From NCBI GenBank assembly GCA_905478995.1, contig CAJQKT010000028.1, forward strand, positions 11,152 through 75,151: 64,000 nt of DNA. The letters are read 5' to 3'. The translations under genes were made by a program, and so were the position numbers. Positions 8,835-55,164 of this stretch are shown piece after piece. The notes below the pieces were generated by a model, which was not told the DNA's origin, did not search any database, and saw only the letters and a program-made list of their open reading frames with translations. Source of the DNA: an uncultured Pseudomonadales bacterium (GTDB lineage Bacteria; Pseudomonadota; Gammaproteobacteria; Pseudomonadales; UBA7434). Numbering within the stretch: position 1 is the first letter of the stretch; every line of letters starts with the position of its first letter.

Positions 8835-9074
<240 letters not shown>

Positions 9075-23652: not shown

Positions 23653-23785
23653 CTCGCCAAATTGCTCCGCTGTTGTGCTTCAGCAGACGCTGTTCTTAGA
23701 CGTTGTATAGTTTTATATAATAATTAAAAAATGAGTTACGCTTGCGCCTATGCTAGGCCTTAATTAAGCAGTGATTAGTAAGGTA

Positions 23786-24178: not shown

Positions 24179-24309
24179 TGCGCTGACCTAAAGGTGAAAG
24201 ATACTTAGTATATTCGGTTTTGGTTTATGTGACCGATTAAATTACGGTTTATTGGCAGTAACTGCTATCACGGCCAATTTATCGGAAACTCATTATGTAC
24301 ATGCAGCTC

Positions 24310-25680: not shown

Positions 25681-25690
25681 ATTAAAAGCG

Positions 25691-32011: not shown

Positions 32012-32614
32012 ATGCTAATGCTCAAAAAAAATCACATCAATCGAGGCTTAGCTATTGGTATTTTGCTGATGTCGGCACCTTTATTTGCACAGCCATTTTG
32101 CTCGCTGCGCGACCCCGTTTCTATCATTGATAAAATGGTACCGCAGAGCGACTCTTTTCGCTCTAGCGTTGTCAACATCAACAACAAAATGCGTAACGAG
32201 TTGATTGCCGAGACCGGCATCACGATGCATCGTCAAGAGCTTGGCTATCACACGCTATACCATGTTCATGATACAGGTGAAAGCGAAACTATTATTCACG
32301 TCCGGCCTGAAGCAACACGCTGGGGCATTACTGAAATTGCATGGTCTATCTCAAGCGACGGACAAATTATTGGCTATGAGTTTCAACGCTGTCGTGCACG
32401 TTCTTGTGACGATTTGAATAGCGCAAGCCTCTTCGCCAATGTGCCTGTCTTAGATGGCGCCTCATTGGCAAAATTGCTGGGCGATGATCATAAGCATCTA
32501 TCTCCCCAAGGCCTTGAGCAATTAACTTTTCCTGCCGGGAGTGACGCGCTGGTTGTTTCCGTTATTCGCTCCGGTATAAAAGCCGCTGCGCTGATTAAGC
32601 ATACCAACAGTTAA
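32012..32614 (+). CDS. Secreted (periplasmic) protein of unknown function, weakly FMN_bind-like
   Basis: Signal peptide 'GILLMSAPLFA|QP'. 200 aa with 3 Cys. 'WGITEIAWSISSDGQIIGYEF' and C-terminal 'GSDALVVSVIRSGIKAA' loosely recall FMN-binding domains. No confident family assignment. Confidence 0.55.
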   Translation: MLMLKKNHINRGLAIGILLMSAPLFAQPFCSLRDPVSIIDKMVPQSDSFRSSVVNINNKMRNELIAETGITMHRQELGYHTLYHVHDTGESETIIHVRPEATRWGITEIAWSISSDGQIIGYEFQRCRARSCDDLNSASLFANVPVLDGASLAKLLGDDHKHLSPQGLEQLTFPAGSDALVVSVIRSGIKAAALIKHTNS

Positions 32615-32630: not shown

Positions 32631-34763
32631 ATGCGAATTTCTCATGTGCTTTTAGCGCCTATTTTTTTGGCTAGTATTGTTATCATGATCAGCTCATACG
32701 CTGTTTATTATGGCAATCAGACGGGCAAAAATTTAGAGTATCAATATCAAACCTTAAACGATAATGAATTGCGTTTTAATGCGCTGGCGGCCGAATATTC
32801 GACTATCCTAGTGTTTGCCGATCTAATTGTCGGCTCTGACCAAGGGTTTTTGATTGAGCGTTATCAAAATCAATCCAAAGTCTTACGAAAACAAATAAAA
32901 ATTGTTTTGCTGGCCGATAATTGGTGTTGTTCACACACAGATACCGTTAATTTACACTCTTCGTTAATCACAATGGAGGGCGTTATTGCTACGGCTGTTT
33001 CTTCCGATTTACAAACGAATCCTGCTTTGCAAACGGAATATTTAAATCGCTTAGATGATGCTGCCGTTGTTGGCTTGCAAAGCCTTGACAACATACAGGT
33101 CGAAGTCAAGGCGCTTATCGGCGCGCATAGTTTGTTGTTGGCAGAGAGTCGCACTGCCTACCGTTTTGGCCTGCTAGGCCTTGGTTTAATTGATTTGATT
33201 GCGATTATAGGCTCGTGGATATGGGTATCTACTCACGTTAGCCGTCCGGTTAAAACCTTAGTAAGCGCTTCGAATAAAGCATTTATAAGCGGTCATTTTC
33301 ATAACACTAATAATACCGGCCCGGTAGAATTAAAAACGCTTAGTAATGCTTTTGAGCGCTTGACTAACCATCTGGGTGATCAGCTTGAGGCTGAGCGAAA
33401 TAAGGTTAAGAAGCAGGAGTTGGAGGCGCGGAATGAGCTGTGGAAGTTGGCGCATACCGATGTACTCACACAAGGCCCAAATCGATCTCAGTTCAACCAG
33501 ACCTTTCAAGAGCTTATTGCCAAGTGCAATGCCAATAAAGAGACGTTTGACATTTTTATAGTTGATATTAATGAGTTTAAGTCGATTAATGACACGTTAG
33601 GGCACATGGCAGGTGATGAGCTATTAGTTGCAATCACTCAAGTGTTAGAGAAGGTTGTTGGCGATAACGGTCTGAGCGCTCGGCTAGGAGGTGATGAATT
33701 CGGTTTGTTAGTCACTCCGGCTATGCAAGAGCCAGCTTTAGAAGATTTTATCAAAAACATTATTGACGGTTGTAACGTGCTTACATTTTCTGATGGAATG
33801 CGGCATGGCGTAGACGTTAGTATAGGTGTCGCAACATTTCCTCACGACGCTAAAGATATAGGATCTTTATTAAAAGCTGCCGATACGGCGATGTACCGAG
33901 CTAAAAGAGATAGCGTAGCGGGCAGCTGTTGGTTGCATTACCTGCCTCAAATGGATACCGAGCGGCAGCGGCGGGCTTGGCTGCGCAACTTAGTAGCCGC
34001 CGGCATCGAGAACAAAGAATTTGAATTATATTGTCAGCCTATTATAGATGCATCGACCCGTAAGGTGGTCAGTGGTGAATGTTTGTTGCGATGGCCGAGT
34101 GGTCCAGAGCATGTGACCATACCTGAAATCATTAATATTGCGGAGACGAGCGGGCTAATTCTAGAGCTCACCGTTGAGATTTTGGAACAGGCTTGCTCGT
34201 TTATTGCAGCATTGGAGGCACATGGATTATCTACGAGCGTGGCTGTTAATATATCCGCCGTCCAATTTAAATATCAAAACATAGTTTCGATATTAAAGGC
34301 GGCGATTGAAAAATCGAATATAAGCGCTGATCGTCTTGTCATTGAAATCACAGAATCTGTTTTTGTTGGTAGTTTCGCACGAGTAAAACAAACGTTTAGT
34401 GAGCTTCAGGATTTGGGTATTGATATTGCAATTGATGATTTTGGCACTGGCTATTCAAGTCTTAATTATCTCAACGAGCTCAACGCTGACTGGCTCAAAA
34501 TAGACCAATCGTTCATTAACAACATCGATAAGCCTGATGGTGAAAGGTTTGTTTATGCGTTCACTGAGCTTAGCCGTGCCGTGGGTACGAAGATGGTCGC
34601 AGAGGGCGTAGAAACGTTAAAGCAGCTGCAGATTCTGCAAAAACTGAACGTTGAACGAATACAAGGCTACTATATTTCAAAACCCATTCCGAAAGCCGAA
34701 TTTATTAAGTTTGCTCTTAATTCTCAGCAAGTTCGAACGGGCAGTGTTACAAAGCTGCGCTAA
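32631..34763 (+). CDS. Inner-membrane sensor: TM / helical periplasmic domain / TM / HAMP / GGDEF / EAL
   Basis: Two hydrophobic segments (res ~5-25 and ~176-198) flank a ~150 aa helical domain. HAMP-like linker. Intact 'GGDEF' ('RLGGDEFGLL'). EAL domain with the variant 'ECLLRW', then 'DDFGTGYS', 'KIDQSF', 'EGVE' and 'QGYYISKP'. Confidence 0.88.
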   Translation: MRISHVLLAPIFLASIVIMISSYAVYYGNQTGKNLEYQYQTLNDNELRFNALAAEYSTILVFADLIVGSDQGFLIERYQNQSKVLRKQIKIVLLADNWCCSHTDTVNLHSSLITMEGVIATAVSSDLQTNPALQTEYLNRLDDAAVVGLQSLDNIQVEVKALIGAHSLLLAESRTAYRFGLLGLGLIDLIAIIGSWIWVSTHVSRPVKTLVSASNKAFISGHFHNTNNTGPVELKTLSNAFERLTNHLGDQLEAERNKVKKQELEARNELWKLAHTDVLTQGPNRSQFNQTFQELIAKCNANKETFDIFIVDINEFKSINDTLGHMAGDELLVAITQVLEKVVGDNGLSARLGGDEFGLLVTPAMQEPALEDFIKNIIDGCNVLTFSDGMRHGVDVSIGVATFPHDAKDIGSLLKAADTAMYRAKRDSVAGSCWLHYLPQMDTERQRRAWLRNLVAAGIENKEFELYCQPIIDASTRKVVSGECLLRWPSGPEHVTIPEIINIAETSGLILELTVEILEQACSFIAALEAHGLSTSVAVNISAVQFKYQNIVSILKAAIEKSNISADRLVIEITESVFVGSFARVKQTFSELQDLGIDIAIDDFGTGYSSLNYLNELNADWLKIDQSFINNIDKPDGERFVYAFTELSRAVGTKMVAEGVETLKQLQILQKLNVERIQGYYISKPIPKAEFIKFALNSQQVRTGSVTKLR

Positions 34764-40201: not shown

Positions 40202-40729
40202 TTAAGAGTTAAGAGCCTGCTCAATTGTTGCGAATGCTTGAATAACATCGGATGGCGCTTGCACTAGCTCCACGAGCACGCCCTCAGCGCTGATGGGGGT
40301 TTGCTCATTGCCTTTGGGGTGAATAAAAACCACCTCGTAGCCTGAAGCGCCGGGGCGAATTCCGCCGGGGGTGAAGCGCACACCTTGCGCGCCCAGCCAT
40401 TCGACAGCAGCTGGCAGATTATCCACCCAAAATCCAACATGATTGAGAGCGGGCGTGTCTACCCGCGGTTTTTTGTTGGGGTCGAGCGGTTGCATCAAAT
40501 CTACCTCAACCTTCAATAATCCCTCGCCAACCTCGCAAATATCTTCATCGACATTTTCGCTTTCGCTGGTATAACTATGTGAAAATTTTAGACCGAGCAG
40601 GTCGACCCAAAAGGCCTTAAGCTTTTTCTTGTTGGGTGCGCCAATGGCAATTTGTTGTAAGCCTAATACTTTAAATGGTCGGTCTGAGTGCAAAATGGAC
40701 TCCTTGTTGAGGCGGGGGGTGCTATTCAT
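40202..40729 (-). CDS. VOC-family protein, methylmalonyl/ethylmalonyl-CoA epimerase-like
   Basis: '[11 protein letters not shown]' and 'VVFIHPKG...GVLVELVQ' follow the paired beta-alpha-beta-beta-beta pattern of the epimerases. The internal ATG (MNSTPR...) is preferred over the track start at 40786. Confidence 0.5.
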
Positions 40730-40869
40730 CGCTACAGTGTTTAGATTGCCATGAGTTATGCTGCGAGGCAATGCCGGCATTTTCAAGAGTTGTTGGTTGT
40801 GCGCTATTGCTGGATAATATCGGTATCTTATCGTCTTTTAACCCACCGATACATTGAATAGCGAATTCT

Positions 40870-41613
40870 ATGACCACCACTACCGCTGCGTCCCTTTCTG
40901 ATAAAAATATCCCTGTTGATGAGCGCTTGATGTTTGCTCTTGATGTGCCCAGTAATGATGAAGCGATGCGGCTCGTCAGTGAATTGGGTGATGCGGTCAC
41001 TTTTTATAAAGTAGGCCTTGAGCTGTTCATGGCCGGTAATTATTTTGCGCTAGTCGAATGGCTCGTTGCACAAAATAAAAAAGTATTCGTTGATTTGAAG
41101 TTTTTTGATGTGCCTCAAACAGTCGCTTCAGCCGTCACTCAGCTGACCAAGTACGGGGCTTCCTTTGCTACCGTGCACGGCAACGACAGTATCCTAAAAG
41201 CGGCGGTGGCAGCGGCTGCGCAGAGTGAATTAAAAATATTGGCTGTGACTGCGCTGACGAGTCTTGATCAAGGTGATATCGATGATTTGGGCTTTAAAGC
41301 CGATGTTAAAGACATTGTGCTCAGCCGTGCGCGCCGTGCATTTGAGGCCGGCTGTGCCGGTGTTATTAGCTCTGGTCTTGAAGCGCCTGCGTTGCGCGGC
41401 AGTTTAGGCCAGCGAATAATGATCATTACACCGGGTATTCGCCCAGTGGCTAATACCGACGATCAAAAACGTACTGTTAATGTTGAGCAAGCCTTCGAAA
41501 ATGGTGCTGACTATATAGTAGTGGGGCGGCCGATTAAAAATCATGCTGGATATGATTCTCCGCGCGATGCGGCGCTAGATATTCAGCGACGCATTCGTGA
41601 GGTTTTTGCTTAG
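40870..41613 (+). CDS. pyrF: Orotidine 5'-phosphate decarboxylase
   Basis: 'FALDV', 'FYKVGLELF', 'DLKFFDVPQTV' and 'ADYIVVGRPI' catalytic signatures. Confidence 0.93.
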   Translation: MTTTTAASLSDKNIPVDERLMFALDVPSNDEAMRLVSELGDAVTFYKVGLELFMAGNYFALVEWLVAQNKKVFVDLKFFDVPQTVASAVTQLTKYGASFATVHGNDSILKAAVAAAAQSELKILAVTALTSLDQGDIDDLGFKADVKDIVLSRARRAFEAGCAGVISSGLEAPALRGSLGQRIMIITPGIRPVANTDDQKRTVNVEQAFENGADYIVVGRPIKNHAGYDSPRDAALDIQRRIREVFA

Positions 41614-41664
41614 TCAGTTGTAAAATATTGTCAGCAGCTACGTTGAGGATGTAAATCTACCACT

Positions 41665-42108
41665 ATGACCGATGATTTTTGTTATTTACTGCGTGTTCGC
41701 TATGCCGAATGTGATGCTCAAAAGGTGGTTTTTAACGGCCGCTATGTCGATTATGTGGACGTTGCCGTGACTGAATTTACGCGTGCTTTATGGGGCGATT
41801 ATGCGGAGCTATTAAAAAAGGGCATTGATAATCAGGTTGTGGCAATAAAAATTGATTGGCAGGCACCGGCTCATTTCGATGAGGTTTTAGCTATCCGTGT
41901 TTCAGTTTTGCGTATTGGGGTATCGTCTTACACGCTCAATGTGCAGTTTTTTCACCATGTGACTAATAAGCCGTTAGCTCAATGCGAAATCACTTACGTG
42001 GTGATTGATGCCGAGCGCTTCGAAAAAATGCCGATTCCTGAAGATCTGCGCGCATCACTTCAGCATGGTGCGATGGGTGTCACGGTCGATCATGCAGGCA
42101 TGGGTTAG
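41665..42108 (+). CDS. 4HBT/YbgC-type hotdog thioesterase
   Basis: 147 aa. 'LRVRYAECDAQKVVFNGRYVDY' N-terminal motif (catalytic Asp) is typical of the 4HBT class. Confidence 0.7.
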   Translation: MTDDFCYLLRVRYAECDAQKVVFNGRYVDYVDVAVTEFTRALWGDYAELLKKGIDNQVVAIKIDWQAPAHFDEVLAIRVSVLRIGVSSYTLNVQFFHHVTNKPLAQCEITYVVIDAERFEKMPIPEDLRASLQHGAMGVTVDHAGMG

Positions 42109-42117
42109 CCTCTACCT

Positions 42118-43116
42118 CTAAGTAGGCCAAGCCTTCGTGCTTGTACGCAAATGTTCTGCGCGCGCGTTGTAGCTGGCCAAGAGTTCGCCTAGGTCGTGTT
42201 GATTGTCTAGGTCCCGAGCAATAGCAGCAGCACCGCCTAGGCGCGCCACGCCACTCTTACCAAATTCTTCTTGCAGCTGGCGAATGGCCCACGCACCTTG
42301 CTGTGCAGTGCGCCCCGCCGTAAGTGACTGCATACTAACTAGATGAGCCCGGTGAGCCTCTAAGGCATTCACCAGCGCATCAATCCCTTGCCGATCACGT
42401 GCACTTAGAGTGCATACGGGAATTTTCCAGTCGGAGTCTTGCGTGCTGCGACGCATCACCTGGTGCAAATCGTTGGCCGCTTTAATTGCAGGCGCACCAA
42501 GATCAGCTTTGTTAACGACCATAATATCGGGCACTTCCATAATGCCCGACTTGATGAATTGAATGCTATCGCCGGATGCCGGTTGTACCACATAGGCCGT
42601 CGTATCAACCATGCTGGCCACGTCAACCTCCGACTGTCCAACACCAACCGTTTCTATAAGAACAATGTCGTAGCCAGCTAGCAGTATGCGACTCATTGGC
42701 CACACTTCAGCCGCGAGCCCGCCGAGTTGTTGACGACTAGCGAGCGAGCGAATAAATAAGTTTTTGTGTTGCCCTGCGCCGGTCATCCGTAGTCGGTCGC
42801 CTAAGAGCGCGCCGCCCGTTTTGGGGCTTGAGGGGTCAACGGCCAAAACGGCTACTTTTAAACCCTTGGCACACCAGTAATCAATTAAGGCTGATAAAAG
42901 AGAGGATTTCCCTGCACCAGGAGGACCCGTAATTCCAATAAGATGGCCATCGTTGGCGAGTCGCTCGGCTTCAAGTGCAGCGAGTAATTCAAGTGCTTTG
43001 GCGCGTGTGGCTGGCCGTTGGTCATCAATCAAATTAAGCGCTTCGGCCACCGCTTGTCGATCGGCCAAGCGTAATTTGGCGGCTAGCGTTTGTGGGTCAG
43101 ATACGGCTGTCTGCAT
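42118..43116 (-). CDS. meaB: MeaB/ArgK G-protein chaperone for B12-dependent acyl-CoA mutases
   Basis: 'GITGPPGAGKSSL' P-loop, 'ETVGVGQSE' and 'NKAD'. The start codon overlaps the mutase stop (TAATG). Confidence 0.88.
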   Translation of the reverse strand: MQTAVSDPQTLAAKLRLADRQAVAEALNLIDDQRPATRAKALELLAALEAERLANDGHLIGITGPPGAGKSSLLSALIDYWCAKGLKVAVLAVDPSSPKTGGALLGDRLRMTGAGQHKNLFIRSLASRQQLGGLAAEVWPMSRILLAGYDIVLIETVGVGQSEVDVASMVDTTAYVVQPASGDSIQFIKSGIMEVPDIMVVNKADLGAPAIKAANDLHQVMRRSTQDSDWKIPVCTLSARDRQGIDALVNALEAHRAHLVSMQSLTAGRTAQQGAWAIRQLQEEFGKSGVARLGGAAAIARDLDNQHDLGELLASYNARAEHLRTSTKAWPT

Positions 43117-45131
43117 TACAAAGGACCAAAAGCGTCCAGCTGATGGGCCAGCCGAGCTAGGTCGACCATTTCAGCCATGATTTTATTGAGATCAGAATCT
43201 TTAGGTGTGTAGATAGCGGCTATGCCGCGCTCCTTGAGGGCGACATGCTCATCTTCAGGGATGATGCCACCCATTGTCACGGGCAGCGCGCCCAAATCAA
43301 TAGCTCGCAGGCCATCAATTACCATCTCAGCCATCGCCGTATGGCTGCCGGATAGCACCGATAAGCCTACCAAGTGCACACCTTCTTCTTGTGCCGCGGC
43401 AACAATTTGCTGCGGGGTTAGACGAATACCTTCGTAAACCACTTCCATACCCAATTCGCGTGCTTTTACCGCAATCTGTTCAGCGCCGTTGCTGTGTCCG
43501 TCGAGGCCTGGCTTGGCCACAAGTAACTTAATCGGTCTCCCTAGCGAGCTGCCAGTGGCGGTTACCCGCTCGCGCAGAGCTGCTACCCGCTCAGGATCAC
43601 CGCCAATACTACTGCTAATATCAATGCCTGTCGGTGCGCGATATTCTCCAAAAACGTCACGTAGCGTCTGTGCCCACTCGCCCGTTGTAACCCCGGCATG
43701 GGCACATGCAATAGAGGCCGGCATAATATTGTCGTTAGACTTTGCAACATCACGCAAAGTATTCAGGGCACTATTAACTTTGTCTTGATCACGGTTGGCG
43801 CGGTGGGCTTGAATAGCTTCTATATGCTGTTGTTCGACGGCAGGATCGACTTTCATGATGCCGCCATCACCACTTTGTGTAAGGGGCGATTCAGCGGTTT
43901 CTTTGAATTTGTTAACTCCAACAATCGTCAGTTCACCCGTCTCAATGGCGCGCAACCGCTCGGCGTGACTTTTTACAAGTGCTTGCTTCATATAGCCGCT
44001 GTCAATTCCTGCCAATACGCCGCCTTGTTCGGCAACCCGCTGAATTTCGGCGTTGGCGCCTTCCATCAACTCTTGCATTTTTGCTTCGATGACAGGCGAG
44101 CCATTGAGTATGTCGCCGTACTCAAGTAAATCGGTTTCGAACGCCATGACTTGCTGAATTCGCAGCGACCATTGTTGGTCCCATGGGCGCGGCAACCCGA
44201 GGGCTTCGTTCCATGCGGGCAGTTGTACTGCTCGTGCTCGAGCATCTTTACTTAACACTACAGCCAGCATTTCAAGCACAATTCGTTGTACATTGTTTTC
44301 GGGTTGTGACTCGGTAAGTCCTAACGAGTTGACTTGCACGCCATAGCGAAAACGTCTTTGTTTGGCATCTTTAACGCCATAGCGCTCAAGAGTAATTTCA
44401 TCCCACATTTGGGTAAAAGCGCGCATTTTGCAGCATTCCTCGATAAAGCGAATACCAGCATTGACAAAAAAGCTAAGGCGGCTGACTACTTTAGGGAAAT
44501 CAGCCTCGGGGATTTGACCACTATCGCGCACAGCATCGAGCACCATTATTGCGGTTGATAGTGCATAGGCGAGCTCTTGTACCGGGGTCGCTCCAGCCTC
44601 TTGCAAGTGGTAGCTGCAAATATTTGTTGGATTCCATTTCGGCACGTTGGGCACAGAATAAGTAATCGTGTCGACAATTAAACGCAAGCTAGGTCCAGGC
44701 GGAAAAATATGCGTGCCGCGACTTAAATACTCTTTAACAATGTCGTTTTGCGTCGTGCCTTGAAGCTTTGCTGGGTCGATGCCCCGGCGTTCGGCTAATG
44801 CGATATAAAGCGCCAGCATCCATGGCGCTACGGCATTGATGGTCATTGAGGTATTCATTTGATCAAGCGGTAATTGATCAAATAAAACATCCATATCATC
44901 CAGGTGCGATATGGGCACGCCAACTTTTCCTACTTCACCACGCGCCAAAGGATGGTCAGGGTCATAACCGGTTTGTGTTGGCAAATCAAAAGCAACTGAC
45001 AAGCCCGTTTGCCCTTTAGCAAGATTCGATCGATAGAGTTCGTTAGAAGTTCGTGCGGAGCTGTGTCCCGAATAGGTACGCACTAGCCAGGGACGATCTT
45101 TAGATGTGCTCACATTAAGCTCCGGAGTCAA
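43116..45131 (-). CDS. ecm: B12-dependent acyl-CoA mutase, ethylmalonyl-CoA mutase (Ecm/MeaA) type, fused large and B12-binding domains
   Basis: N-terminal 'DRPWLVRTYSGHSSARTSNELYRSNLAKGQTGLSVAFDLPTQTGYDPDH' matches the Ecm-type pattern (…RTYAGHS…PTQTGYD) rather than the MCM type (…YAGFST…ATHRGYD). C-terminal B12 motif 'DGHSNG' (DxHxxG). 671 aa. TTG (or nearby GTG) start directly after the upstream stop. Confidence 0.7.
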   Translation of the reverse strand: MTPELNVSTSKDRPWLVRTYSGHSSARTSNELYRSNLAKGQTGLSVAFDLPTQTGYDPDHPLARGEVGKVGVPISHLDDMDVLFDQLPLDQMNTSMTINAVAPWMLALYIALAERRGIDPAKLQGTTQNDIVKEYLSRGTHIFPPGPSLRLIVDTITYSVPNVPKWNPTNICSYHLQEAGATPVQELAYALSTAIMVLDAVRDSGQIPEADFPKVVSRLSFFVNAGIRFIEECCKMRAFTQMWDEITLERYGVKDAKQRRFRYGVQVNSLGLTESQPENNVQRIVLEMLAVVLSKDARARAVQLPAWNEALGLPRPWDQQWSLRIQQVMAFETDLLEYGDILNGSPVIEAKMQELMEGANAEIQRVAEQGGVLAGIDSGYMKQALVKSHAERLRAIETGELTIVGVNKFKETAESPLTQSGDGGIMKVDPAVEQQHIEAIQAHRANRDQDKVNSALNTLRDVAKSNDNIMPASIACAHAGVTTGEWAQTLRDVFGEYRAPTGIDISSSIGGDPERVAALRERVTATGSSLGRPIKLLVAKPGLDGHSNGAEQIAVKARELGMEVVYEGIRLTPQQIVAAAQEEGVHLVGLSVLSGSHTAMAEMVIDGLRAIDLGALPVTMGGIIPEDEHVALKERGIAAIYTPKDSDLNKIMAEMVDLARLAHQLDAFGPL

Positions 45132-46304
45132 TTATGCAGGGCGTTTTTTGATAAGTAGTTGACGCTCAATTTCAAATATTTTGTCGGCTATTTTTTCTTT
45201 ACCTAATTTACGCTTGCTGCCTTCTTTAATAAAAAGATCTGAGCCGTGTTTTTCTAATGCATGTGCTGCGGTGATATTTTTTACACCTATAAATTGCACG
45301 GTCACAATACCTGCAGCCAGCTGGGTCGGTGCCTCGCGCGTATCGAGCACCCGGCTAAGCGCTGCTACTGTATCGTTGCGAAACGCCGGCTGCGTATGAT
45401 AACCCTCAGTAAAGCCTAGTTCCCATAAACAGTTCTCGGTAAGGTCGCGGCTTGCCATGCCGTCGAGCCACGCAAATACTAAGCCTCCATAAACAATAGG
45501 TTCACCGCTCATAGCGCCCGATTGCGCGGTAGAGTACAGGCGGTCGTTATGCAGAGGGTGAGTATTACCAACCCCGTACGTCCAGTTTACATGTTCGTCG
45601 GTAATGGTGCGGCCATTGGCATGCACAATAATATCGCCGGCGCAAAAGTTCTCGAAATAGGTGTTGCTACCGGTCAAGCTCGAAGGATACTTTTCTGGTG
45701 CGCTGGGCAGTACTACTTGAGGCGCATCGAGCCACGGAAAATCTGTATCGGTATTACTAGCGGGAATCGTAGGCGGGCGCTCACCTCGAAAGGCGACCAT
45801 TATTTTTCGCTTGTACTGTAATACAGCTTGCTCGTGCTGGTTGAGCCCCATCGTCAGTACGGTCACTATGCCGGGTTTATCAGCGCCGCGCTCTTGTCGA
45901 TCAACAACTTTGGTGAGGCTGCGCAGCGTATCACCTGGGTATACCGGCCGCAAAAATTGCGCATTGTAATAGCCAAGGTTAGCGATGGCCTTTTCCGAAT
46001 CATTTTGTACGCCAAGGCTCAATACGAGATTGAAGACCATTTGCGGGCATAGCGGCGTGCCGCTAAAACCATGCTGTCGTGCAAAATCTTCGTTCAAATA
46101 AAGCGGGTTACCTTGCATGAAGGTTGTGGCGAATGCCTTAGCCATACCTCGATCGATGGTAATGCCTCGAGGATGCTGAAACACTTGGCCGGGTACAAAT
46201 TCTTCGAGATAGCGTCCGTAGTGAGGGTGGCGAACTTTGTTTAACACCACATCGGTTTGGGGTGCTAACTCTGTTTGTTCTGGCGCGGTGAATTCAATAG
46301 ACAT
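45132..46304 (-). CDS. MaoC-type double-hotdog enoyl-CoA hydratase (mesaconyl-CoA hydratase-like)
   Basis: 390 aa with two hotdog halves. 'IANLGYYNAQFLRPVYPGDTL' parallels the Mch/itaconyl-CoA hydratase family. Placed between the Mcd-like and Ecm-like genes. Confidence 0.6.
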   Translation of the reverse strand: MSIEFTAPEQTELAPQTDVVLNKVRHPHYGRYLEEFVPGQVFQHPRGITIDRGMAKAFATTFMQGNPLYLNEDFARQHGFSGTPLCPQMVFNLVLSLGVQNDSEKAIANLGYYNAQFLRPVYPGDTLRSLTKVVDRQERGADKPGIVTVLTMGLNQHEQAVLQYKRKIMVAFRGERPPTIPASNTDTDFPWLDAPQVVLPSAPEKYPSSLTGSNTYFENFCAGDIIVHANGRTITDEHVNWTYGVGNTHPLHNDRLYSTAQSGAMSGEPIVYGGLVFAWLDGMASRDLTENCLWELGFTEGYHTQPAFRNDTVAALSRVLDTREAPTQLAAGIVTVQFIGVKNITAAHALEKHGSDLFIKEGSKRKLGKEKIADKIFEIERQLLIKKRPA

Positions 46305-46389
46305 GCCATGATCTCTGCGTGAAGCGCTATTGTGGATTGCGCCTTAAGAGCCTATTCGGACGCTGTTATTACTAATAGTTGTCATTAAA

Positions 46390-48078
46390 TTAATCACCCG
46401 CATTTTCAATGAGGCTGCGTGCAATAACTTTTAGCGCCAACGTTTCTTCCGCGCCTTCAAAAATAGACAGCACCCGTGCGTCGACAAAATATCGGCTGAC
46501 GGCCGTCTCTTCAGCGTAGCCCATACCGCCATGAATTTGCATTGCCTCGCGCGTGACCCACTCGGCCACATTGCATGCTAACACTTTCACTAAGCTTGCT
46601 TCCATTTGCCCTTCGCCCTTGTCGAGCAGGCGCCCTACGCCGTAGGTGAACTGACGGCATACCTGCAGCAGCATTCCCATGCGTGCAAGCTTGACCCGTG
46701 TGAGTTGATAATCGCCAACAGGTTGGCCAAACACTTTGCGGTCAGTTGCGTAGCTTAGTGATTTTTCAAAAGCGGCCTGCATGATGCCTAAGGCGCGAGC
46801 GGCCGTTTGAATCCGACCACCAGCAAATCCTTTCATTACCGAGTAAAAGCCTTTATTTAAACCGTCTTCACCGCCTAGTAAGTTCGCATCGGGAACGAAA
46901 TAATTTTCAAAATAAACCTCAAAGCTATGCATGCCACGATAGCCCATGGTAGGAATTGCTTTGCCCCGGATCATGCCACCATTTTCTTGATGGTGCTCGA
47001 ATTCGTGACCAGCAAAGACAGGCTTTTCTGCTAAAAATACTGATAAGCCTCTATGCCCAGCCGACGGGTCAGGATTGGTTCGAGCCAAAACGAGTAAGAC
47101 GTTGGCTTTGCCACAAAAAGTACACCAGGTTTTGGCGCCGTTGAGTAACCAGCCGCCTTCAGTTTTTATGGCTGGGAGCTTCATGTTGGCAACGTCAGAG
47201 CCATAGTCGGGCTCTGTGACAGCAATGGCATTGAGGATTTCACCTTGTGCTAGCCGCGGTAGCCAAGTTTTCTTTTGTTCTTCTGTACCGCCGGCCAAAA
47301 GTGCTTTGGCAAGAATTTCGGGGCGGGTAATTAACGAGCCTGCTGCGCCAACCGATCCTCGCGATAGCGCTTCAGTTACCACGATCATCCCCATGTTGTC
47401 TTCTCGATCATCTGGCTGCAGACCGCCAAACTGTTCGGGAATAGACAGACCAAATACGCCCATTTCTTTGAGTGGATTAAGAATGTCATCAGGAATATCG
47501 GCGTCTTTACGATGGATGTGCTCAGCTAGCGGGTGAACAACATCGAGAGCAAACCGGCTAAAGGTATCTGCCATAAACTCGTGCTCTTGATCTAGAACAC
47601 TTTTTCCAAGGTGACCGCTACTAGTGCGCATTTGGTCGCCCAGTGACACGATATTTTCTACGCAACTTTGCTCCGACGCCCATGCAACAAGCTCGGGCTG
47701 ATCGAGCAATGCATGAAACTGCATAGGCTCGATTTTAAAATCGGCTAATCTAGGCGCGATGCGTGCTCGTAAATTAGTAAACATTTCTGAGCAATAGGCC
47801 GCGGCAATTTGATTTTCAAGTAAATTGTCTTCAGCCGTGCTTTTTTCGCGTAAGCGTTCGGCATATTCCAGCATGTGTCGAGCGGCTGACACTTCTGCTG
47901 CTGAGCGAGCAAGGTCAAAGCTCACCCATTGGTGTTGGTCGAGCAAGGCACTACGGACTTTGCCGTCTTTGCTACAAGCTTGTCGTAGCTTAGTCAAGCT
48001 TTGGTCGATGATGGCTTGTGCATTGATGGTGAGCTGTTTTGCGGTATCGAGATTTACTAGAGTACTACTTGCTGACAT
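46390..48078 (-). CDS. Acyl-CoA dehydrogenase with ~165 aa N-terminal extension (methylsuccinyl-CoA dehydrogenase-like)
   Basis: ACAD core ('AVTEPDYGSD', 'KTWCT', 'GGMGY' near the C-terminus) preceded by a long helical extension, as described for Mcd. 562 aa. Confidence 0.6.
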   Translation of the reverse strand: MSASSTLVNLDTAKQLTINAQAIIDQSLTKLRQACSKDGKVRSALLDQHQWVSFDLARSAAEVSAARHMLEYAERLREKSTAEDNLLENQIAAAYCSEMFTNLRARIAPRLADFKIEPMQFHALLDQPELVAWASEQSCVENIVSLGDQMRTSSGHLGKSVLDQEHEFMADTFSRFALDVVHPLAEHIHRKDADIPDDILNPLKEMGVFGLSIPEQFGGLQPDDREDNMGMIVVTEALSRGSVGAAGSLITRPEILAKALLAGGTEEQKKTWLPRLAQGEILNAIAVTEPDYGSDVANMKLPAIKTEGGWLLNGAKTWCTFCGKANVLLVLARTNPDPSAGHRGLSVFLAEKPVFAGHEFEHHQENGGMIRGKAIPTMGYRGMHSFEVYFENYFVPDANLLGGEDGLNKGFYSVMKGFAGGRIQTAARALGIMQAAFEKSLSYATDRKVFGQPVGDYQLTRVKLARMGMLLQVCRQFTYGVGRLLDKGEGQMEASLVKVLACNVAEWVTREAMQIHGGMGYAEETAVSRYFVDARVLSIFEGAEETLALKVIARSLIENAGD

Positions 48079-48227
48079 TATCGAGTCTCACTGCTATTGA
48101 GTGTCCGTTGGTAAGCTTCGGTGGTTTCAAAATAATAACCCAATGCTTGAACGGCTAATTTAGAGCGCAATAGTTTAACGCAAGTTAAGGCATTGCACAT
48201 CACTGGTGCTATAATTCCGCTCCAATA

Positions 48228-48260
48228 TTTAACGGCTGTTCAAGCTGAACAGCCGTTAAA
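48228..48260. promoter_or_regulatory. 33-bp perfect palindrome (15-bp arms, 3-nt centre) in the divergent promoter region
   Basis: TTTAACGGCTGTTCA-AGC-TGAACAGCCGTTAAA, verified base by base. Lies 12 nt after a TATAAT hexamer (48210-48215) and 61 nt before the ATG at 48322. Confidence 0.6.
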
Positions 48261-48321
48261 GGGGAGAAATTTATTGTGCACGACGTATTTTTACGTTCCC
48301 AAAGTTTTACAGGATCATCGA

Positions 48322-49212
48322 ATGAGCCAGCTTACCCATCCATTTCGCTCCATGCTGTATATGCCTGGATCCAATCTACGCGCGCTTGAAAAAGCCAAAA
48401 GTCTGCCGGTTGATGCACTTATTTTTGACTTGGAAGATTCAGTGGCTCCTGATCAAAAGCATCTTGCTCGTGAGCAGGTCGCCCAAGCAGCTATCGAAGC
48501 AAATTCAGGCACTTACGGAAAACGGCAGATTATCATTCGCAGTAACAGCCTTGATTCGGATTGGGGCGAGGACGATTTGCGCGCGGCCGCCGCGGCTAAA
48601 CCTGATGGCATTTTACTACCAAAAATAAACAGCGCTACGGATATCCATGCGGCTCAGCTTATTCTTGAAGAATCCGGCCTGTCCGATAAAACCCGTATTT
48701 GGGTGATGATGGAGACACCGTTATCTATTTTACATGCCGAAGAAATTGCTGGTGCTTCATCACGCTTAGCTGGTTTAGTCATGGGCACTTCAGACCTCGT
48801 TAAAGATATTCATGGCCAGCATACAGCTATGCGTCTGCCCGTTATTGCCAGCCTCAATCTATGTGTGTTAGCTGCGCGAGCGCACCGTTTAATTATTATG
48901 GATGGCGTGTATCTCGATTTAGGTAATACCGATGGTTTTACTCAGGCATGTGAGCAAGGGCTTGAGTTCGGTTTTGATGGAAAAACGTTAATACACCCCA
49001 AACAATTAGAGGGCGCCAATAGCGTTTTTGCGCCAAGCGATGCGGAGCTTGAATTTTCAAATCGTATTATTGCAGCTCACGCTGAAGCTGAAGCCCAGGG
49101 CCAAGGTGTGGTTTTAGTGGATGGAAAATTAATTGAAAATTTACACGTGCAAGATGCCCACCGTATTGTAGCTTTAAATCAAGCCATTGCTGCGCTCTCT
49201 GAAGACCCGTAA
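48322..49212 (+). CDS. HpcH/CitE-family acyl-CoA lyase or thioesterase (citrate lyase beta-like; Mcl2/citramalyl-CoA lyase-like)
   Basis: 'RSMLYMPGSNLRALEKA..LPVDALIFDLEDSVAP' is the CitE-like N-terminal signature. The ATG at 48322 has AGGA at -13. The longer track ORF (48193) runs through the promoter and palindrome. Confidence 0.75.
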   Translation: MSQLTHPFRSMLYMPGSNLRALEKAKSLPVDALIFDLEDSVAPDQKHLAREQVAQAAIEANSGTYGKRQIIIRSNSLDSDWGEDDLRAAAAAKPDGILLPKINSATDIHAAQLILEESGLSDKTRIWVMMETPLSILHAEEIAGASSRLAGLVMGTSDLVKDIHGQHTAMRLPVIASLNLCVLAARAHRLIIMDGVYLDLGNTDGFTQACEQGLEFGFDGKTLIHPKQLEGANSVFAPSDAELEFSNRIIAAHAEAEAQGQGVVLVDGKLIENLHVQDAHRIVALNQAIAALSEDP

Positions 49213-49312
49213 AACCCCAGTAACAATCCATTGGACTTTCTTCGCAGGTCAAAGAAACAGCAATTAAATCTTTAGACTGCACAAACACATAGGTTTAACC
49301 TCGAGAAAAATT

Positions 49313-50350
49313 ATGCAGAGTAAAACGCCCAGAAATTTTTTTAAACCCCTTGCCGTTGGCGCACCTGCACCGTACCGTGAATTGCCAACACGTCTTGAGC
49401 GGATGATTCACTTTTTTCCGCCACATGTTGAAAAAATGCGCGCAAAAGTTCCGGCAATCGCGAGTGAAGTAGATGTCATCTTAGGCAACCTTGAAGATGC
49501 GATTCCAGCTGATGCTAAAGAGCAGGCGCGAGCCGGTTTGATTGAAGCCGCGCAAGCTTGTGATTTTGGAAGTACTGGGCTTTGGGTGCGAATTAATTGC
49601 TTAAATTCTCCTTGGGGGCTCGACGATATTGTTGAGCTGATGAGCAGTATTGGTAACAAGCTGGACGTCATCATGCTGCCTAAAGTTGATGGCGCTTGGG
49701 ACATCCATTATCTCGATCAATTATTAGCGCAACTTGAAGCGAAGCACGGCATCACGAAGCCAGTGTTAATTCACGCCATATTAGAAACCGCCGAAGGTGT
49801 TAATAATATTGCCGATATTGCTGCAGCCAGTCCGCGCATGCACGGCATGAGCTTGGGCCCGGCCGACTTAGCAGCGTCACGCGGCATGAAAACGACACGA
49901 GTCGGTGGCGGCCATCCATTTTATGGCATGTTGGCCGATCCCGTGGAGGGCGCAGAGATTGATGTTGCTAGCCGTGCTTTTGTACAGCAAGATCCGTGGC
50001 ACTACACGCTGGTGAAAATGGTCGATGCCTGTATGGCTAATGGCATTAAGCCATTTTATGGACCGTTTGGCGATTTCTCAGATGATGAGGCTTGTCGAGC
50101 ACAATTTCGTAATGCATTTTTGTTGGGTTGTGTTGGGGCATGGTCATTGCACCCTAAACAAATCGCTATTGCTCGCGAGGTTTTTTCACCCGACCCCGAT
50201 GAGGTTGCCTTTGCAAAGCGTATTCTTGAGGCTATGCCCGATGGCACCGGAGCCGTTATGATTGATGGCAAGATGCAGGATGATGCAACGTGGAAGCAAG
50301 CTAAAGTTATTGTTGACTTAGCGATGCTGGTTGAGCAAAAAGGCGCATAG
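49313..50350 (+). CDS. HpcH/HpaI-family malyl-CoA / beta-methylmalyl-CoA lyase-like protein
   Basis: '[12 protein letters not shown]', '[23 protein letters not shown]', '[35 protein letters not shown]' and '[19 protein letters not shown]' match the Mcl-type lyases as I remember them. 345 aa. Confidence 0.7.
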
Positions 50351-53889: not shown

Positions 53890-55164
53890 ATGACGTTAAC
53901 CAACAAAATATTTATTGCTATGGCCGCAGGTATTGCTGTGGGTACGCTGGGCAACTTTTTACAGCCAGCATTACACGGTAGCCAATGGGTTAGCTTGTTA
54001 GAGACTTACTTTTTTTTTGGCGCGCTAGAAATCGTCGGAAAAGTTTTTATTGCTTCGCTCAAAGTTTTAGTTGTCCCACTGGTTTTTGTTTCGTTAGTTT
54101 GCGGCACCGCAAGTCTTGGCGGGCATAATAGACGTATGGGCGTCATGGCTGGAAAGACAATCGCTCTTTATTTACTGACCACGGCGATTGCTATTTCTAT
54201 TGCCCTGACCCTCGCCCTTATTATTGAGCCTGGTGCGGGCAATACCTATCAAAGCACTTCCGAATATCAGTCAGCTGAACCGCCTGCGTTGAAGCAAGTT
54301 CTGGTTAATATTTTTCCTAGTAATCCCGTAAAAGCCATGGCCGAAGGCAATATGCTTCAAGTGATTGTTTTCGCGATTTTATTCGGCGTTGCTATATCTC
54401 GCGCCCGTGAATACGGTGAGCGTATAGCAGGAGCATTTTCTGCGCTCAACGAAATAATTATGGAAATGGTTAAAATATTAATGCAGCTGGCGCCCTACGG
54501 AGTTTTTTGCTTGTTGGCCAAAATATTTTATGCAACGGGCTTTAGCTTGATCGCTCAGTTATTGCTATATTTTTTAACAGTGATGATGGCCTTGATTATC
54601 CATGCCACAATTATCTACACATCACTACTGGCTTTTATTGCTAAGTTGAACCCGCTAGTTTTTTTAAAACGCATTCGGCCTGTAATGATGTTTGGTTTTG
54701 CCACGGCATCAAGTAATGCCACTATGCCAGTAACACTTGAAGTTGCAGAAGAAAAATTAGGAGTGAAAAACTCCGTAGCATCTTTTACTATTCCTCTTGG
54801 CGCCACCATTAACATGGACGGCACAGCTATTATGCAAGGTGTGGCCACCGTTTTTATCGCTCAGGCCTATCAGGTTGATATTAGCTTGGCGGGCTATCTA
54901 ACTGTCATATTAACCGCCACACTAGCGTCTATTGGTGCGGCAGGCGTGCCTGGGGTCGGCTTGATTACGCTAGCTCTGGTTTTGCAGCAAGTAGGTCTGC
55001 CTGTTGAAGGGATTGCGCTTATTGTCGGTGTTGATCGCTTACTTGATATGATGAGAACCGCAGTCAATGTAACGGGTGATTCTGCGGTGTCTTGTCTTGT
55101 GGCTAAGAGCGAGGGAGCACTCGACGAAGAAATATTTTATGGCCGCACTCTCGAGCAAAAATAA
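53890..55164 (+). CDS. Dicarboxylate/amino acid:cation symporter (DAACS family)
   Basis: 424 aa, polytopic. 'ATASSNATMPVT', 'IPLGATINMDGTA' and 'VDRLLDMMRTAVNVTGD' are DAACS signatures. Confidence 0.88.
   Translation: MTLTNKIFIAMAAGIAVGTLGNFLQPALHGSQWVSLLETYFFFGALEIVGKVFIASLKVLVVPLVFVSLVCGTASLGGHNRRMGVMAGKTIALYLLTTAIAISIALTLALIIEPGAGNTYQSTSEYQSAEPPALKQVLVNIFPSNPVKAMAEGNMLQVIVFAILFGVAISRAREYGERIAGAFSALNEIIMEMVKILMQLAPYGVFCLLAKIFYATGFSLIAQLLLYFLTVMMALIIHATIIYTSLLAFIAKLNPLVFLKRIRPVMMFGFATASSNATMPVTLEVAEEKLGVKNSVASFTIPLGATINMDGTAIMQGVATVFIAQAYQVDISLAGYLTVILTATLASIGAAGVPGVGLITLALVLQQVGLPVEGIALIVGVDRLLDMMRTAVNVTGDSAVSCLVAKSEGALDEEIFYGRTLEQK

Follow-up and report, generated by a model that had tools for sequence, protein, structure and literature searches.

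The compact gene cluster at positions 40202-50350 of the window (the whole 64-kb stretch of DNA analysed here) comprises the middle and lower steps of the ethylmalonyl-CoA (EMC) route of acetate assimilation and is built from unusual enzyme subtypes. On balance, the cluster is best read as the EMC segment that leads from ethylmalonyl-CoA to glyoxylate and propionyl-CoA, and on to malate, with the missing parts most likely located elsewhere in the genome. Every gene of the EMC-type set listed in a preliminary description of this DNA was found in its place, and the housekeeping flanks reported there (yggT, pyrF, and ubiA) were seen as well, together with yggS, proC, and ubiC. The cluster and its immediate neighbors are as follows, in window coordinates.

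40202-40729, minus strand: VOC/Glyoxalase_4 protein, putative ethylmalonyl-CoA/methylmalonyl-CoA epimerase (PF13669)
40870-41613, plus strand: pyrF
41665-42108, plus strand, convergent with meaB: YbgC/FadM-family 4HBT acyl-CoA thioesterase (TIGR00051)
42118-43116, minus strand: MeaB, G-protein chaperone for the mutase (TIGR00750, PF03308)
43116-45113, minus strand: Ecm/MeaA, predicted (2R)-ethylmalonyl-CoA mutase, large subunit and B12 domain fused (PF01642 and PF02310)
45132-46304, minus strand: MaoC double-hotdog hydratase, 390 aa, putative mesaconyl-C1-CoA hydratase (PF19315)
46390-48078, minus strand: Mcd, (2S)-methylsuccinyl-CoA dehydrogenase of the PmMcd type, 562 aa (matches to 8CIW and 6ES9)
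48079-48321, no strand: divergent intergenic region between mcd and the Mcl2-like gene, from the gene coordinates
48322-49212, plus strand: Mcl2-like CitE protein, putative (3S)-malyl-CoA thioesterase, 296 aa (PF03328)
49313-50350, plus strand: Chloroflexus-type malyl-CoA/beta-methylmalyl-CoA lyase (Mcl), 345 aa (match to 4L7Z)

The source is an uncultured, abundant marine gammaproteobacterium that carries the NCBI label 'Pseudomonadales bacterium'. On contigs of the same lineage, dnaA lies about 4 kb from the window start. Gene callers on near-identical contigs place the start of ecm at 45113 (665 aa; an alternative TTG start is at 45131) and that of the Mcl2-like gene at 48322, giving 296 aa and not 339. 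The region between mcd and the Mcl2-like gene presumably holds the promoters for both, and a consensus promoter scan of 48079-48321 returned sites no more often than chance. No Rfam match, cobalamin riboswitch included, was obtained anywhere in the 64-kb window.

The mutase, described earlier as an Ecm-type B12 enzyme, falls in the Ecm/MeaA clade and not with MCM or ICM. Its identity is 64-67% with MeaA from Streptomyces and from a Rhodospirillaceae MAG, each encoded beside ccr, and 64-87% with Ecm-clade proteins, against 34% for the MCM paralogue of a related locus (L082); its score with the MCM equivalog is 509 bits (cut-off 876). The Ecm-clade motifs RTYSGHS, CSYHLQEAG, and LDGHSNG are present (MCM counterparts RQYAGFS, SGYHIQEAG, and QDGHDRG), and the P. 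shermanii MCM residues Tyr89, Gln197, Arg207, Tyr243, and His244 are kept (five of five). Clade membership thus points to an ethylmalonyl-CoA mutase. The start of meaB overlaps the mutase stop codon, meaB directly follows ecm in every related locus, and the proposed chaperone identity is borne out by a TIGR00750 score of 249.7 bits (cut-off 240.75), with 257 bits against PF03308.

The dehydrogenase has both the N-terminal extension expected of a methylsuccinyl-CoA dehydrogenase and the arginine triad. Along its entire length, this extension can be aligned with the two solved methylsuccinyl-CoA dehydrogenases, PmMcd (attributed to Pseudomonas migulae; PDB 8CIW; PMC10266731) at E 1e-179 and 602 bits over residues 11-560, and PdMcd (6ES9) at E 2e-93 and 317 bits; full-length identity to PmMcd is about 60%, an estimate from the printed alignment. 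Arg252, Arg376, Arg421, and the catalytic Glu535 (PdMcd numbering, PMC5798300) are all conserved. Ile stands at PdMcd Ala285 and Val at Phe287, a position that is Ile in PmMcd; the methyl-pocket position of PmMcd is Ile275 (PMC10266731), and the window Mcd shares the methyl-pocket Ile and the triad with that enzyme. The database proteins nearest to it are 96% identical and come from uncultured sources. The Ile that replaces Ala in the methyl pocket of the window Mcd has a counterpart in PmMcd, where it accompanies high succinyl-CoA activity. PmMcd was investigated in isolation, for use in synthetic CO2 fixation; its succinyl-CoA activity (5.2 U/mg, Km 78 uM) was described as a side activity (PMC10266731).

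PmMcd-type dehydrogenases also occur in clusters without ecm that look clearly catabolic, for instance in Spongiibacter taiwanensis (L095), with an Htd2 hydratase, an HpcH lyase, and two family-III CoA transferases. The window cluster might likewise break down free C5-dicarboxylic acids (ethylmalonate, methylsuccinate, mesaconate) imported from seawater and not serve acetate assimilation, and the window has a TRAP dicarboxylate-type transporter (22477-26251) and an SDF symporter (53890-55164). However, these transporters are 3.5-14 kb off, behind unrelated housekeeping genes, the cluster contains no CoA transferase or acyl-CoA ligase for activation of the free acids, and both the gene of malyl-CoA thioesterase type and the association of the core with ccr in relatives point to assimilation, which makes a catabolic module unlikely.

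The public gene names would also accommodate ordinary propionate or branched-chain catabolism by a methylmalonyl-CoA mutase, a generic acyl-CoA dehydrogenase, and citrate-lyase-like genes. NCBI uses 'methylmalonyl-CoA mutase family protein', 'acyl-CoA dehydrogenase family protein', and 'CoA ester lyase', and IMG calls the second CitE protein 'citrate lyase subunit beta' and the VOC protein 'lactoylglutathione lyase'. This explanation is contradicted by the mutase (34% to MCM against 64-87% to the Ecm clade; 509 bits, below 876), and a generic dehydrogenase by the Mcd-specific extension and arginine triad; the chance that it is correct is negligible.

The hydratase, claimed earlier as a double-hotdog MaoC protein, belongs to the mesaconyl-CoA-hydratase family (PF19315 MC_hydratase, 89 bits, cut-off 26.5) and falls under every NCBIfam equivalog cut-off. 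Matches to the Chloroflexus hydratases 4E3E and 8HGN reach only 118-121 bits, and the canonical Mch-like gene of Accumulibacter (359 aa) is 31% identical. Its gene always lies between mcd and ecm in related loci, and IMG names it 2-methylfumaryl-CoA hydratase. It appears to represent a clade specific to beta- and gammaproteobacteria with a putative mesaconyl-C1-CoA hydratase role.

The 345-aa lyase had been described as nearer to the Chloroflexus than to the Rhodobacter enzyme, and the scores agree: 560 bits and 70.0% identity over 340 residues with Chloroflexus MCL (4L7Z), against 240 bits with Rhodobacter Mcl1 (4L9Y). Glu60, Asp61, Arg92, Glu157, Asp184, and Asp318 are conserved, and all catalytic residues of MCLC, the tri-functional malyl-CoA lyase of the Chloroflexus aurantiacus 3-hydroxypropionate bi-cycle, are present; the IMG name is malyl-CoA/(S)-citramalyl-CoA lyase. 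The second CitE-family protein (PF03328, 147 bits) has malyl-CoA lyases as its nearest solved relatives (5UGR and 4L9Y, 125-140 bits). In the alignment, the Mg and substrate residues are kept, the MCL-specific insertion is missing, and Glu replaces the catalytic Asp of the lid (Asp318 of MCLC) in this protein as in its three orthologues. No other exception to this Asp occurs in the superfamily, and the exchange is the hallmark of the Mcl2 thioesterase subgroup (PMC3832036); the earlier suggestion of a malyl-CoA thioesterase-like protein is in line with this signature, and that activity is putatively assigned.

Partial bi-cycle gene sets are known from the gammaproteobacterial Kentron, Thiosymbion, and Competibacter, and Chloroflexus-type lyase genes from several gammaproteobacterial clades have been assigned a proposed role in organic substrate assimilation (PMC6593406). 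The window is thus a further gammaproteobacterial case of this lyase, and the cluster could be a partial bi-cycle-like shunt among glyoxylate, propionyl-CoA, acetyl-CoA, and C4 acids, in which Mcd would mainly convert succinyl-CoA to fumaryl-CoA en route to malyl-CoA and the mutase would be accessory. The strong succinyl-CoA activity of PmMcd and the shared Ile pocket residue fit such a shunt, but that activity was described as a side activity, and the genes for Ecm and MeaB show translational coupling within the operon and are kept in all its versions. Unlike the bi-cycle sets, the window joins the lyase to Ecm, Mcd, and Mcl2 and not to Mch, Mct, Meh, and Smt, lacks a malonyl-CoA reductase or propionyl-CoA synthase context, and, unlike the Accumulibacter locus L089, has no Mct, Meh, or Smt genes. 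We consider the shunt very unlikely.

Two further genes lie at the edge of the cluster. The VOC protein matches PF13669 (E 6e-31, 107 bits) and is under the TIGR03081 methylmalonyl-CoA epimerase cut-off (47.8 bits vs 115); among solved structures, human methylmalonyl-CoA epimerases come closest (E 3e-7). Between the VOC gene and the operon lie pyrF and the thioesterase gene, and its earlier inclusion in the cluster is supported by synteny: a VOC gene with 65% identity lies divergently upstream of mcd in a gammaproteobacterial MAG locus (L093), and another, also at 65%, about 2 kb from mcd in L114. The 4HBT thioesterase (TIGR00051, 74 bits, over the cut-off) is present beside pyrF as described, and its pathway role is supported by adjacency in two lineages only: a 59%-identical copy occurs near the cluster in L084/L085, and none does in L082, L090, or L093. 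Its membership in the module is uncertain.

The reported absence of ccr was confirmed for the 64-kb window (tblastn with Streptomyces Ccr, best match E 2.5) and extended on same-lineage contigs by 10 kb beyond each end (the dnaA-gyrB and asnB sides), where no MDR/Ccr gene was found, so that about 84 kb around the cluster are free of ccr. None lies within 10 kb of the cluster in four lineages with the mcl/mcl2 form. No Ccr could be assigned to the lineage among the best 120 Ccr::CBS relatives listed, and none of 120 Ccr-motif metagenome loci listed had a window-like tetranucleotide composition (best correlation 0.72; 0.96-0.98 for same-lineage loci partly overlapping the window, mean 0.84-0.93 for 3-10 kb window fragments); both are weak negatives. 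Unlinked ccr is common, as no Ccr is found within 10 kb in 16 of 60 loci centred on Ecm in species-representative genomes, and the ccr of this lineage is probably unlinked, elsewhere in the genome. A genome without Ccr could instead form ethylmalonyl-CoA by ATP-dependent carboxylation of butyryl-CoA with a promiscuous propionyl/acyl-CoA carboxylase, or by another route, before the module yields glyoxylate, propionyl-CoA, and malate. Propionyl-CoA carboxylase is well established to carboxylate butyryl-CoA as a side reaction. The L082 cluster has MCM, MeaB, an epimerase, and a large biotin carboxylase as neighbors, the propionyl-CoA branch, which also fits the EMC reading; in L090 the neighbors are an acyl-CoA ligase and an enoyl-reductase-like MDR of the PIG3 type, and FadB and a thiolase are close by. 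These settings and the missing ccr speak for such a variant. Against it, the window contains no carboxylase, sister operons with the same core have ccr::CBS, unlinked ccr is frequent, and to our knowledge Ccr is the sole dedicated ethylmalonyl-CoA source. A ccr-independent variant is therefore possible but doubtful.

Compared with the EMC pathway of Rhodobacter (Cereibacter) sphaeroides and Methylobacterium extorquens (Ccr, Epi, Ecm, Mcd, Mch, Mcl1, and Mcl2), the window has families for every step from ethylmalonyl-CoA to glyoxylate and propionyl-CoA, and to malate, but no ccr in or near the cluster. It also differs in the lyase (Chloroflexus and not Mcl1 subgroup), the hydratase (390 aa, separate clade), the epimerase candidate (below the curated threshold), and Mcd (Ile/Val for Ala285/Phe287; 35-37% identity to alphaproteobacterial-type Mcd genes in L003 and L011). 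The ccr-meaA-mclA-mch-mcd operon of Streptomyces is likewise compact, with an Ecm-clade mutase (64-65% identity) and lyase, hydratase, and dehydrogenase genes, but a classical 445-aa Ccr comes first, the dehydrogenase (about 400 aa) lacks the long extension, the hydratase appears short and single-domain in the ORF list, and the one CitE-like lyase is 32-34% identical to either window lyase.

A related arrangement is the operon (VOC or DUF6986)-mcd-hydratase-ecm-meaB-ccr::CBS of Rhodoferax, Ca. Accumulibacter, and gammaproteobacterial MAGs, in which the four-gene core is orthologous (59-74% identity) and in identical order, with the orthologous VOC gene in L093 and L114. Overall, the mcd-hydratase-ecm-meaB core occurs at 59-87% identity in at least 10 independent loci; the pathway was called mainly alphaproteobacterial and actinobacterial earlier but is not confined to these groups, with this core operon widespread among genomes and MAGs of beta- and gammaproteobacteria. 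Neither a description of the cluster in these bacteria nor a characterisation of the ccr::CBS operon was found in the literature. Most cluster genes are already named as pathway enzymes by public pipelines (IMG gives EMC names to four of the window's proteins), which, with the wide distribution of the core, lowers the novelty. In seven loci (L088, L089, L093, L094, L114, L186, and L002), Ccr::CBS directly follows meaB (L088 protein vs TIGR01751: 568 bits, cut-off 379), which ties the core to crotonyl-CoA carboxylation. These operons end in the Ccr-CBS fusion and lack mcl and mcl2, whereas the ccr-less versions (the window, L084/85, L082/83, and L090) have mcl and mcl2 instead, on the divergent strand in the window. 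Because mcl and mcl2 provide the very steps that the ccr-containing versions lack, each form looks like a partial cluster that complements the other within a single pathway.

In the favored EMC reading, the VOC protein would epimerise (2S)-ethylmalonyl-CoA, and Ecm, assigned by clade and loaded and protected by MeaB, would rearrange the product to (2S)-methylsuccinyl-CoA. Mcd would then form mesaconyl-C1-CoA, an activity shown for its homologue of an estimated 60% identity, and the 390-aa hydratase, judged by family and position, would give beta-methylmalyl-CoA. Mcl would cleave this to glyoxylate and propionyl-CoA, as shown for its 70%-identical homologue, and join glyoxylate with acetyl-CoA to malyl-CoA, which the Mcl2-like protein, given its Asp-to-Glu signature, may hydrolyse to malate. 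The genes for crotonyl-CoA formation, for Ccr, and for propionyl-CoA carboxylase with MCM most likely lie in other parts of the genome, as in many organisms. Points against this reading are the lack of ccr around the cluster, the scores of the VOC protein and the hydratase below the curated cut-offs, and the Ile in the methyl pocket of Mcd. Since a malyl-CoA thioesterase-type gene is present, the role of the cluster in this marine lineage would be assimilatory, with glyoxylate converted to malate.

All genes named in the preliminary description of the module at 40202-50350 were recovered in the ORF list and by family scans. The dehydrogenase (mcd), hydratase, mutase and meaB genes form a tight operon, with a gap of 0-18 nt between the hydratase stop and the mutase start, and with the start of meaB overlapping the stop of the mutase. 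A spacer of 243 nt separates the mcd operon from the divergent CitE-like and lyase genes. The genes of the module are as follows.

46390-48078, minus strand: mcd, encoding a putative methylsuccinyl-CoA dehydrogenase (Mcd)
45132-46304, minus strand: MaoC double-hotdog hydratase, 390 aa
43116-45113, minus strand: fused B12 mutase
42118-43116, minus strand: meaB
48322-49212, divergent from the mcd operon: CitE-like gene, 296 aa, with the start taken from the gene calls on near-identical contigs
49313-50350, divergent from the mcd operon: HpcH/CitE lyase, 345 aa
41665-42108, convergent with meaB: YbgC/FadM-type thioesterase
40202-40729, beyond the thioesterase and pyrF: VOC/Glyoxalase_4 gene

Housekeeping genes flank the module, namely yggS, proC and yggT at one end and, at the other end, a FemAB-like gene followed by ubiA and ubiC. 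The window starts ~4 kb downstream of dnaA, beside rpmH-rnpA-yidC-mnmE-gidAB-parAB-atp (window 1-20000 and comparison locus L091), so that the module is placed ~45 kb from dnaA and presumably also from the replication origin. Promoter and terminator scans gave results at chance level. The Rfam search of both strands over window 1-64000 returned no family at the gathering score, and no cobalamin riboswitch was found with the B12-dependent mutase operon. The G+C content was 0.53 at window 42001-44000 (meaB and the 3' half of the mutase gene) and 0.44-0.49 around it, which fits either a foreign origin or constraints that the proteins place on composition. Other genes in the window include a TRAP transporter 14 kb from the module (22477-26251; DctP, with DctQ and DctM encoded on the other strand), an SDF-family sodium:dicarboxylate symporter 3.5 kb from it (53890-55164), two GGDEF-EAL proteins (18594-19967, minus strand; 32631-34763, plus strand) and three ORFs without a Pfam match (30896-31960, 32012-32614 and 60260-61033).

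The mutase is 64-67% identical to MeaA proteins encoded beside ccr, the gene for crotonyl-CoA carboxylase/reductase (Ccr), in Streptomyces and in a Rhodospirillaceae MAG, and 34% identical to the methylmalonyl-CoA mutase (MCM) paralogue of a related locus, L082; the clustering with methylmalonyl- or isobutyryl-CoA mutases that would have contradicted the preliminary description was thus not seen. It scored 373 bits against Propionibacterium shermanii MCM, 298 bits against 2-hydroxyisobutyryl-type mutase (HCM) and 163 bits against IcmF, and reached 509 bits on the MCM equivalog model (cut-off 876). The motifs RTYSGHS, CSYHLQEAG and LDGHSNG are clade-specific and common to the mutase and all sequences of the ethylmalonyl-CoA mutase (Ecm) group. 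Because of the low identity and score to MCM, the high identity to MeaA and these common motifs, the mutase is placed in the Ecm clade and predicted to convert (2R)-ethylmalonyl-CoA to (2S)-methylsuccinyl-CoA. In the alignment to the P. shermanii MCM structure (1REQ_A), Tyr89, Gln197, Arg207, Tyr243 and His244 are kept, and the cobalamin motif DxHxxG reads DGHSNG; retention of the substrate-carboxylate residues together with this motif excludes an isobutyryl-CoA mutase (ICM) or HCM type. Assignment as MCM or ICM was rejected based on the 34% identity to a true MCM, the Ecm-clade motifs and the 1REQ_A residues.

The dehydrogenase has 562 aa, with Pfam acyl-CoA dehydrogenase (ACAD) domains from residue 164, which leaves an N-terminal extension of the length sought (~170 residues). 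It aligned to PmMcd (8CIW) with 602 bits over residues 11-560 and to PdMcd (6ES9) with 317 bits over residues 24-557, whereas ordinary ACADs matched its C-terminal 400 residues only. Assignment as a generic ACAD was rejected on this end-to-end alignment, which includes the extension. The arginine triad of PdMcd (Arg252, Arg376 and Arg421) and Glu535 are all kept in the 6ES9 alignment; the roles of the triad and of the catalytic Glu have been described (PMC5798300). At the C2-methyl pocket, formed in PdMcd by Ala285 and Phe287, the dehydrogenase has Ile/Val. PmMcd carries Ile275 at the Ala285 position, yet oxidises methylsuccinyl-CoA, with an unusually good succinyl-CoA side activity (PMC10266731). 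The Ile/Val pocket is therefore read as the mark of a subgroup of the PmMcd type and is compatible with membership in Mcd. The protein is a PmMcd-type Mcd.

The hydratase matched PF19315 (MC_hydratase) with 89 bits (cut-off 26.5) over residues 19-339 and was below all NCBIfam equivalog cut-offs (89 vs 560 and 125 vs 340). It gave just 118-121 bits against the Chloroflexus hydratases 4E3E and 8HGN and is ~30% identical to canonical mesaconyl-C1-CoA hydratase (Mch), with 31% to the Mch-like gene of a Candidatus Accumulibacter locus (L089). Its designation as a putative Mch rests on family membership and on the invariant position of the gene between mcd and ecm.

The 345-aa lyase is 70.0% identical over 340 residues to the tri-functional malyl-CoA lyase (MCL) of Chloroflexus (MCLC, 4L7Z), and Rhodobacter Mcl1 is far more distant, which bears out the preliminary description, in which the protein is nearer to the Chloroflexus type. 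The MCL-specific insertion is present, and Glu60, Asp61, Arg92, Glu157, Asp184 and Asp318 are kept; with this identity, the insertion and the lid residue Asp318, the lyase is assigned by sequence to the MCLC subgroup. Chloroflexus-type lyase genes in Gammaproteobacteria were reported previously (PMC6593406). For the 296-aa CitE-like protein, the nearest solved structures are malyl-CoA lyases at just 125-140 bits, and the MCL insertion is lacking. In an alignment with lyases, the catalytic lid Asp found in all lyases is replaced by Glu (DGKLIE) in this protein and in its three orthologues (L084, L082 and L090). This Asp-to-Glu change is the sole exception in the superfamily and occurs only in the malyl-CoA thioesterase (Mcl2) subgroup (Zarzycki and Kerfeld, PMC3832036). 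On the lid Glu, the missing insertion and this confinement to Mcl2, the 296-aa protein is read as Mcl2-like, a putative (3S)-malyl-CoA thioesterase. Annotation pipelines name it only 'citrate lyase subunit beta' (IMG) or 'CoA ester lyase'.

The VOC protein scored 47.8 bits on the curated epimerase model TIGR03081 (cut-off 114.95), and its best PDB matches were to human MCEE (E 3e-7). A gammaproteobacterial MAG (L093) has, divergent beside mcd, a VOC gene to which it is 65% identical, and locus L114 has a similar copy ~2 kb away from mcd, so that synteny ties the protein to the module. Only by inference, from the Glyoxalase_4 family (PF13669) and these operon-associated orthologues, is it considered a putative epimerase. 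On public contigs, its annotated 175-aa form was found on 2 and a 192-aa form on 142. The thioesterase is close to the cluster in the window lineage and its 87% relative only.

Proteins identical to those of the module were each found on 112-239 public contigs of up to 503 kb, at least some of them from marine metagenomes, e.g., the SOLA coastal station. Their NCBI occurrences are limited to MAGs labelled 'Pseudomonadales bacterium', and the clusters at 90% identity contain MAG proteins only ('Pseudomonadales bacterium' or 'bacterium'). Many beta- and gammaproteobacterial loci share the core mcd-hydratase-ecm-meaB (59-87% identity), which comes in two forms. Form A, seen in the window and in the relatives L084/85, L082/83 and L090, consists of the core, mcl and the Mcl2-like gene, with no ccr within 10 kb; in L082, it adjoins genes for MCM, MeaB, epimerase and biotin carboxylase. 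In form B (Rhodoferax L088, Accumulibacter L089, L093, L094, L114 and L186), a ccr fused to CBS domains (Ccr::CBS, ~590 aa) directly follows meaB, mcl and mcl2 are absent, and a VOC gene or a gene for a DUF6986 protein precedes. The two forms look complementary, each holding one half of a single pathway, and this complementarity is the main argument that the window module would work on ethylmalonyl-CoA derived from Ccr. The genes particular to form B are as follows.

L088:13419-15179, Ccr::CBS
L089:13058-14812, Ccr::CBS
L093:10001-11785, Ccr::CBS
L094:13057-14823, Ccr::CBS
L088:5647-7089, DUF6986 protein, 480 aa, 5' of mcd
L089:5611-7053, DUF6986 protein, 480 aa, 5' of mcd
L094:5660-7102, DUF6986 protein, 480 aa, 5' of mcd

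Ccr::CBS, also found in L002, L003, L114 and L186, consists of Ccr and a C-terminal CBS-domain pair (~585-600 aa). The L088 protein scored 568 bits on the Ccr model TIGR01751 (cut-off 379), and the family is just 37-38% identical to Streptomyces Ccr. It is a large family, which clustering at 90% identity divides into more than 120 groups. The DUF6986 protein has a faint HpcH/HpaI match and takes, in the ccr-containing operons, the position of the Mcl2-like gene in the gammaproteobacterial form; a distantly related CoA-ester lyase or thioesterase is a possible identity. In L089, a set resembling the 3-hydroxypropionate bi-cycle (L089:287-4925) lies immediately upstream of the pathway-type operon. 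It comprises an Mch-like hydratase of 359 aa, a Chloroflexus-type Mcl that shares 68% identity with the window lyase, a CoA transferase of family III and an Htd2-like hydratase, and it suggests a possible mesaconyl-CoA to citramalyl-CoA branch. Six metagenome contigs with G+C of 0.31-0.40 (L137, L145, L149, L168, L173 and L185) carry a third Ccr type beside ecm, mostly divergent from it. This protein has ~410 aa and shares 51-54% identity with the CBS type and ~40% with the Streptomyces type. Two of the contigs, L145 and L185, are taken to be marine.

Ccr was not found in the window using tblastn, nor in the 10 kb past each window end, reached by extension via edge proteins. No thiolase, acetoacetyl-CoA reductase, crotonase or propionyl-CoA carboxylase/MCM branch was found among the window ORFs. 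A PIG3-type MDR protein by the cluster in L090 was rejected as Ccr, with 102 bits on TIGR01751 (cut-off 379) and 492 on the PIG3 quinone oxidoreductase model. In the protein collection, the Rhodoferax Ccr-domain query gave no Ccr assignable to the window lineage among the best 120 of ~8000 matches; this is a weak negative because of that coverage and because the family members radiate from one another in a star-like manner, at 62-76% identity. An amino-acid composition screen of the Ccr matches did not discriminate. On metagenome contigs, a codon-biased DNA pattern (RYLWM...GSHFAN, with Phe fixed as TTT) recovered at least 120 Ccr loci, and none of those listed had window-like tetranucleotide composition in a comparison for which same-lineage loci and fragments of the window served as calibration. 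Among the matches listed, these negatives for a lineage Ccr outside the surroundings of the window are weak evidence. The reference for Ecm/ccr linkage was a mutase scan of genome contigs, in which the matches listed were mostly actinobacterial MeaA loci. Ccr was missing within 10 kb at 16 of the 60 Ecm-centred loci listed from species-representative genomes, and an unlinked ccr is thus ordinary.

We lean, with modest confidence, towards the module being a pathway segment whose ccr is elsewhere in the genome, in line with the complementary operon forms and the frequency of unlinked ccr. A version of the module that truly lacks ccr is considered unlikely. A fuller proposal of this kind, slightly more doubtful still, is that the coastal marine gammaproteobacterial lineage and its Halieaceae-like relatives use a Ccr-free route, in which ethylmalonyl-CoA would come from another source (e.g., biotin-dependent butyryl-CoA carboxylation) and then pass through a mosaic of the beta/gamma-type Ecm-Mcd-hydratase core, the Chloroflexus-type lyase and the Mcl2-type thioesterase. 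The rest of the probability is given to catabolic or shunt roles. Against a catabolic role are the absence of a CoA transferase or ligase from the cluster, the presence of a thioesterase-type Mcl2 and the contrast with a cluster in Spongiibacter taiwanensis (L095), which has no ecm and in which CoA transferases accompany a PmMcd-type dehydrogenase. In that cultured marine gammaproteobacterium (CP098455, 3014574-3036256), the dehydrogenase is 69% identical to PmMcd, and its neighbours encode an Htd2 hydratase, an HpcH lyase, two CoA transferases of family III, crotonases and a thiolase; the cluster looks like one for methylsuccinate/mesaconate-type catabolism.

The ethylmalonyl-CoA pathway is usually regarded as alphaproteobacterial and actinobacterial, and ccr is the marker used in surveys. 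The enzyme families of the module are all known, and four of the proteins already carry pathway-enzyme names in IMG. The searchable literature yielded no description of the operon or of Ccr::CBS, nor any of the pathway for these marine lineages. Among the best-ranked papers, none was found on ethylmalonyl-CoA with OM60/NOR5/SAR92/Halieaceae, and the pathway goes unmentioned in two genomic papers on marine Gammaproteobacteria, one on Halieaceae and one on those of North Sea blooms. The module is rated as the known pathway, apparently put together from a core specific to beta/gamma lineages, a lyase of the Chloroflexus type and a thioesterase of the Mcl2 type; its ccr is either unlinked or missing.

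For synthetic CO2-fixation designs, in which PmMcd is already used, the Ile-pocket PmMcd-like dehydrogenase, the 390-aa hydratase and the Ccr::CBS of relatives are relevant subtypes. The data show a distinct beta/gammaproteobacterial version of the pathway core in an abundant coastal marine lineage; of its two complementary operon forms, one lacks a linked ccr. Should the lineage truly lack ccr, the pathway would be entered in a new way. Should the gene lie elsewhere in the genome, the module would simply be an overlooked C2 assimilation route in marine heterotrophs, which marker-gene surveys relying on synteny or classical Ccr models could miss.
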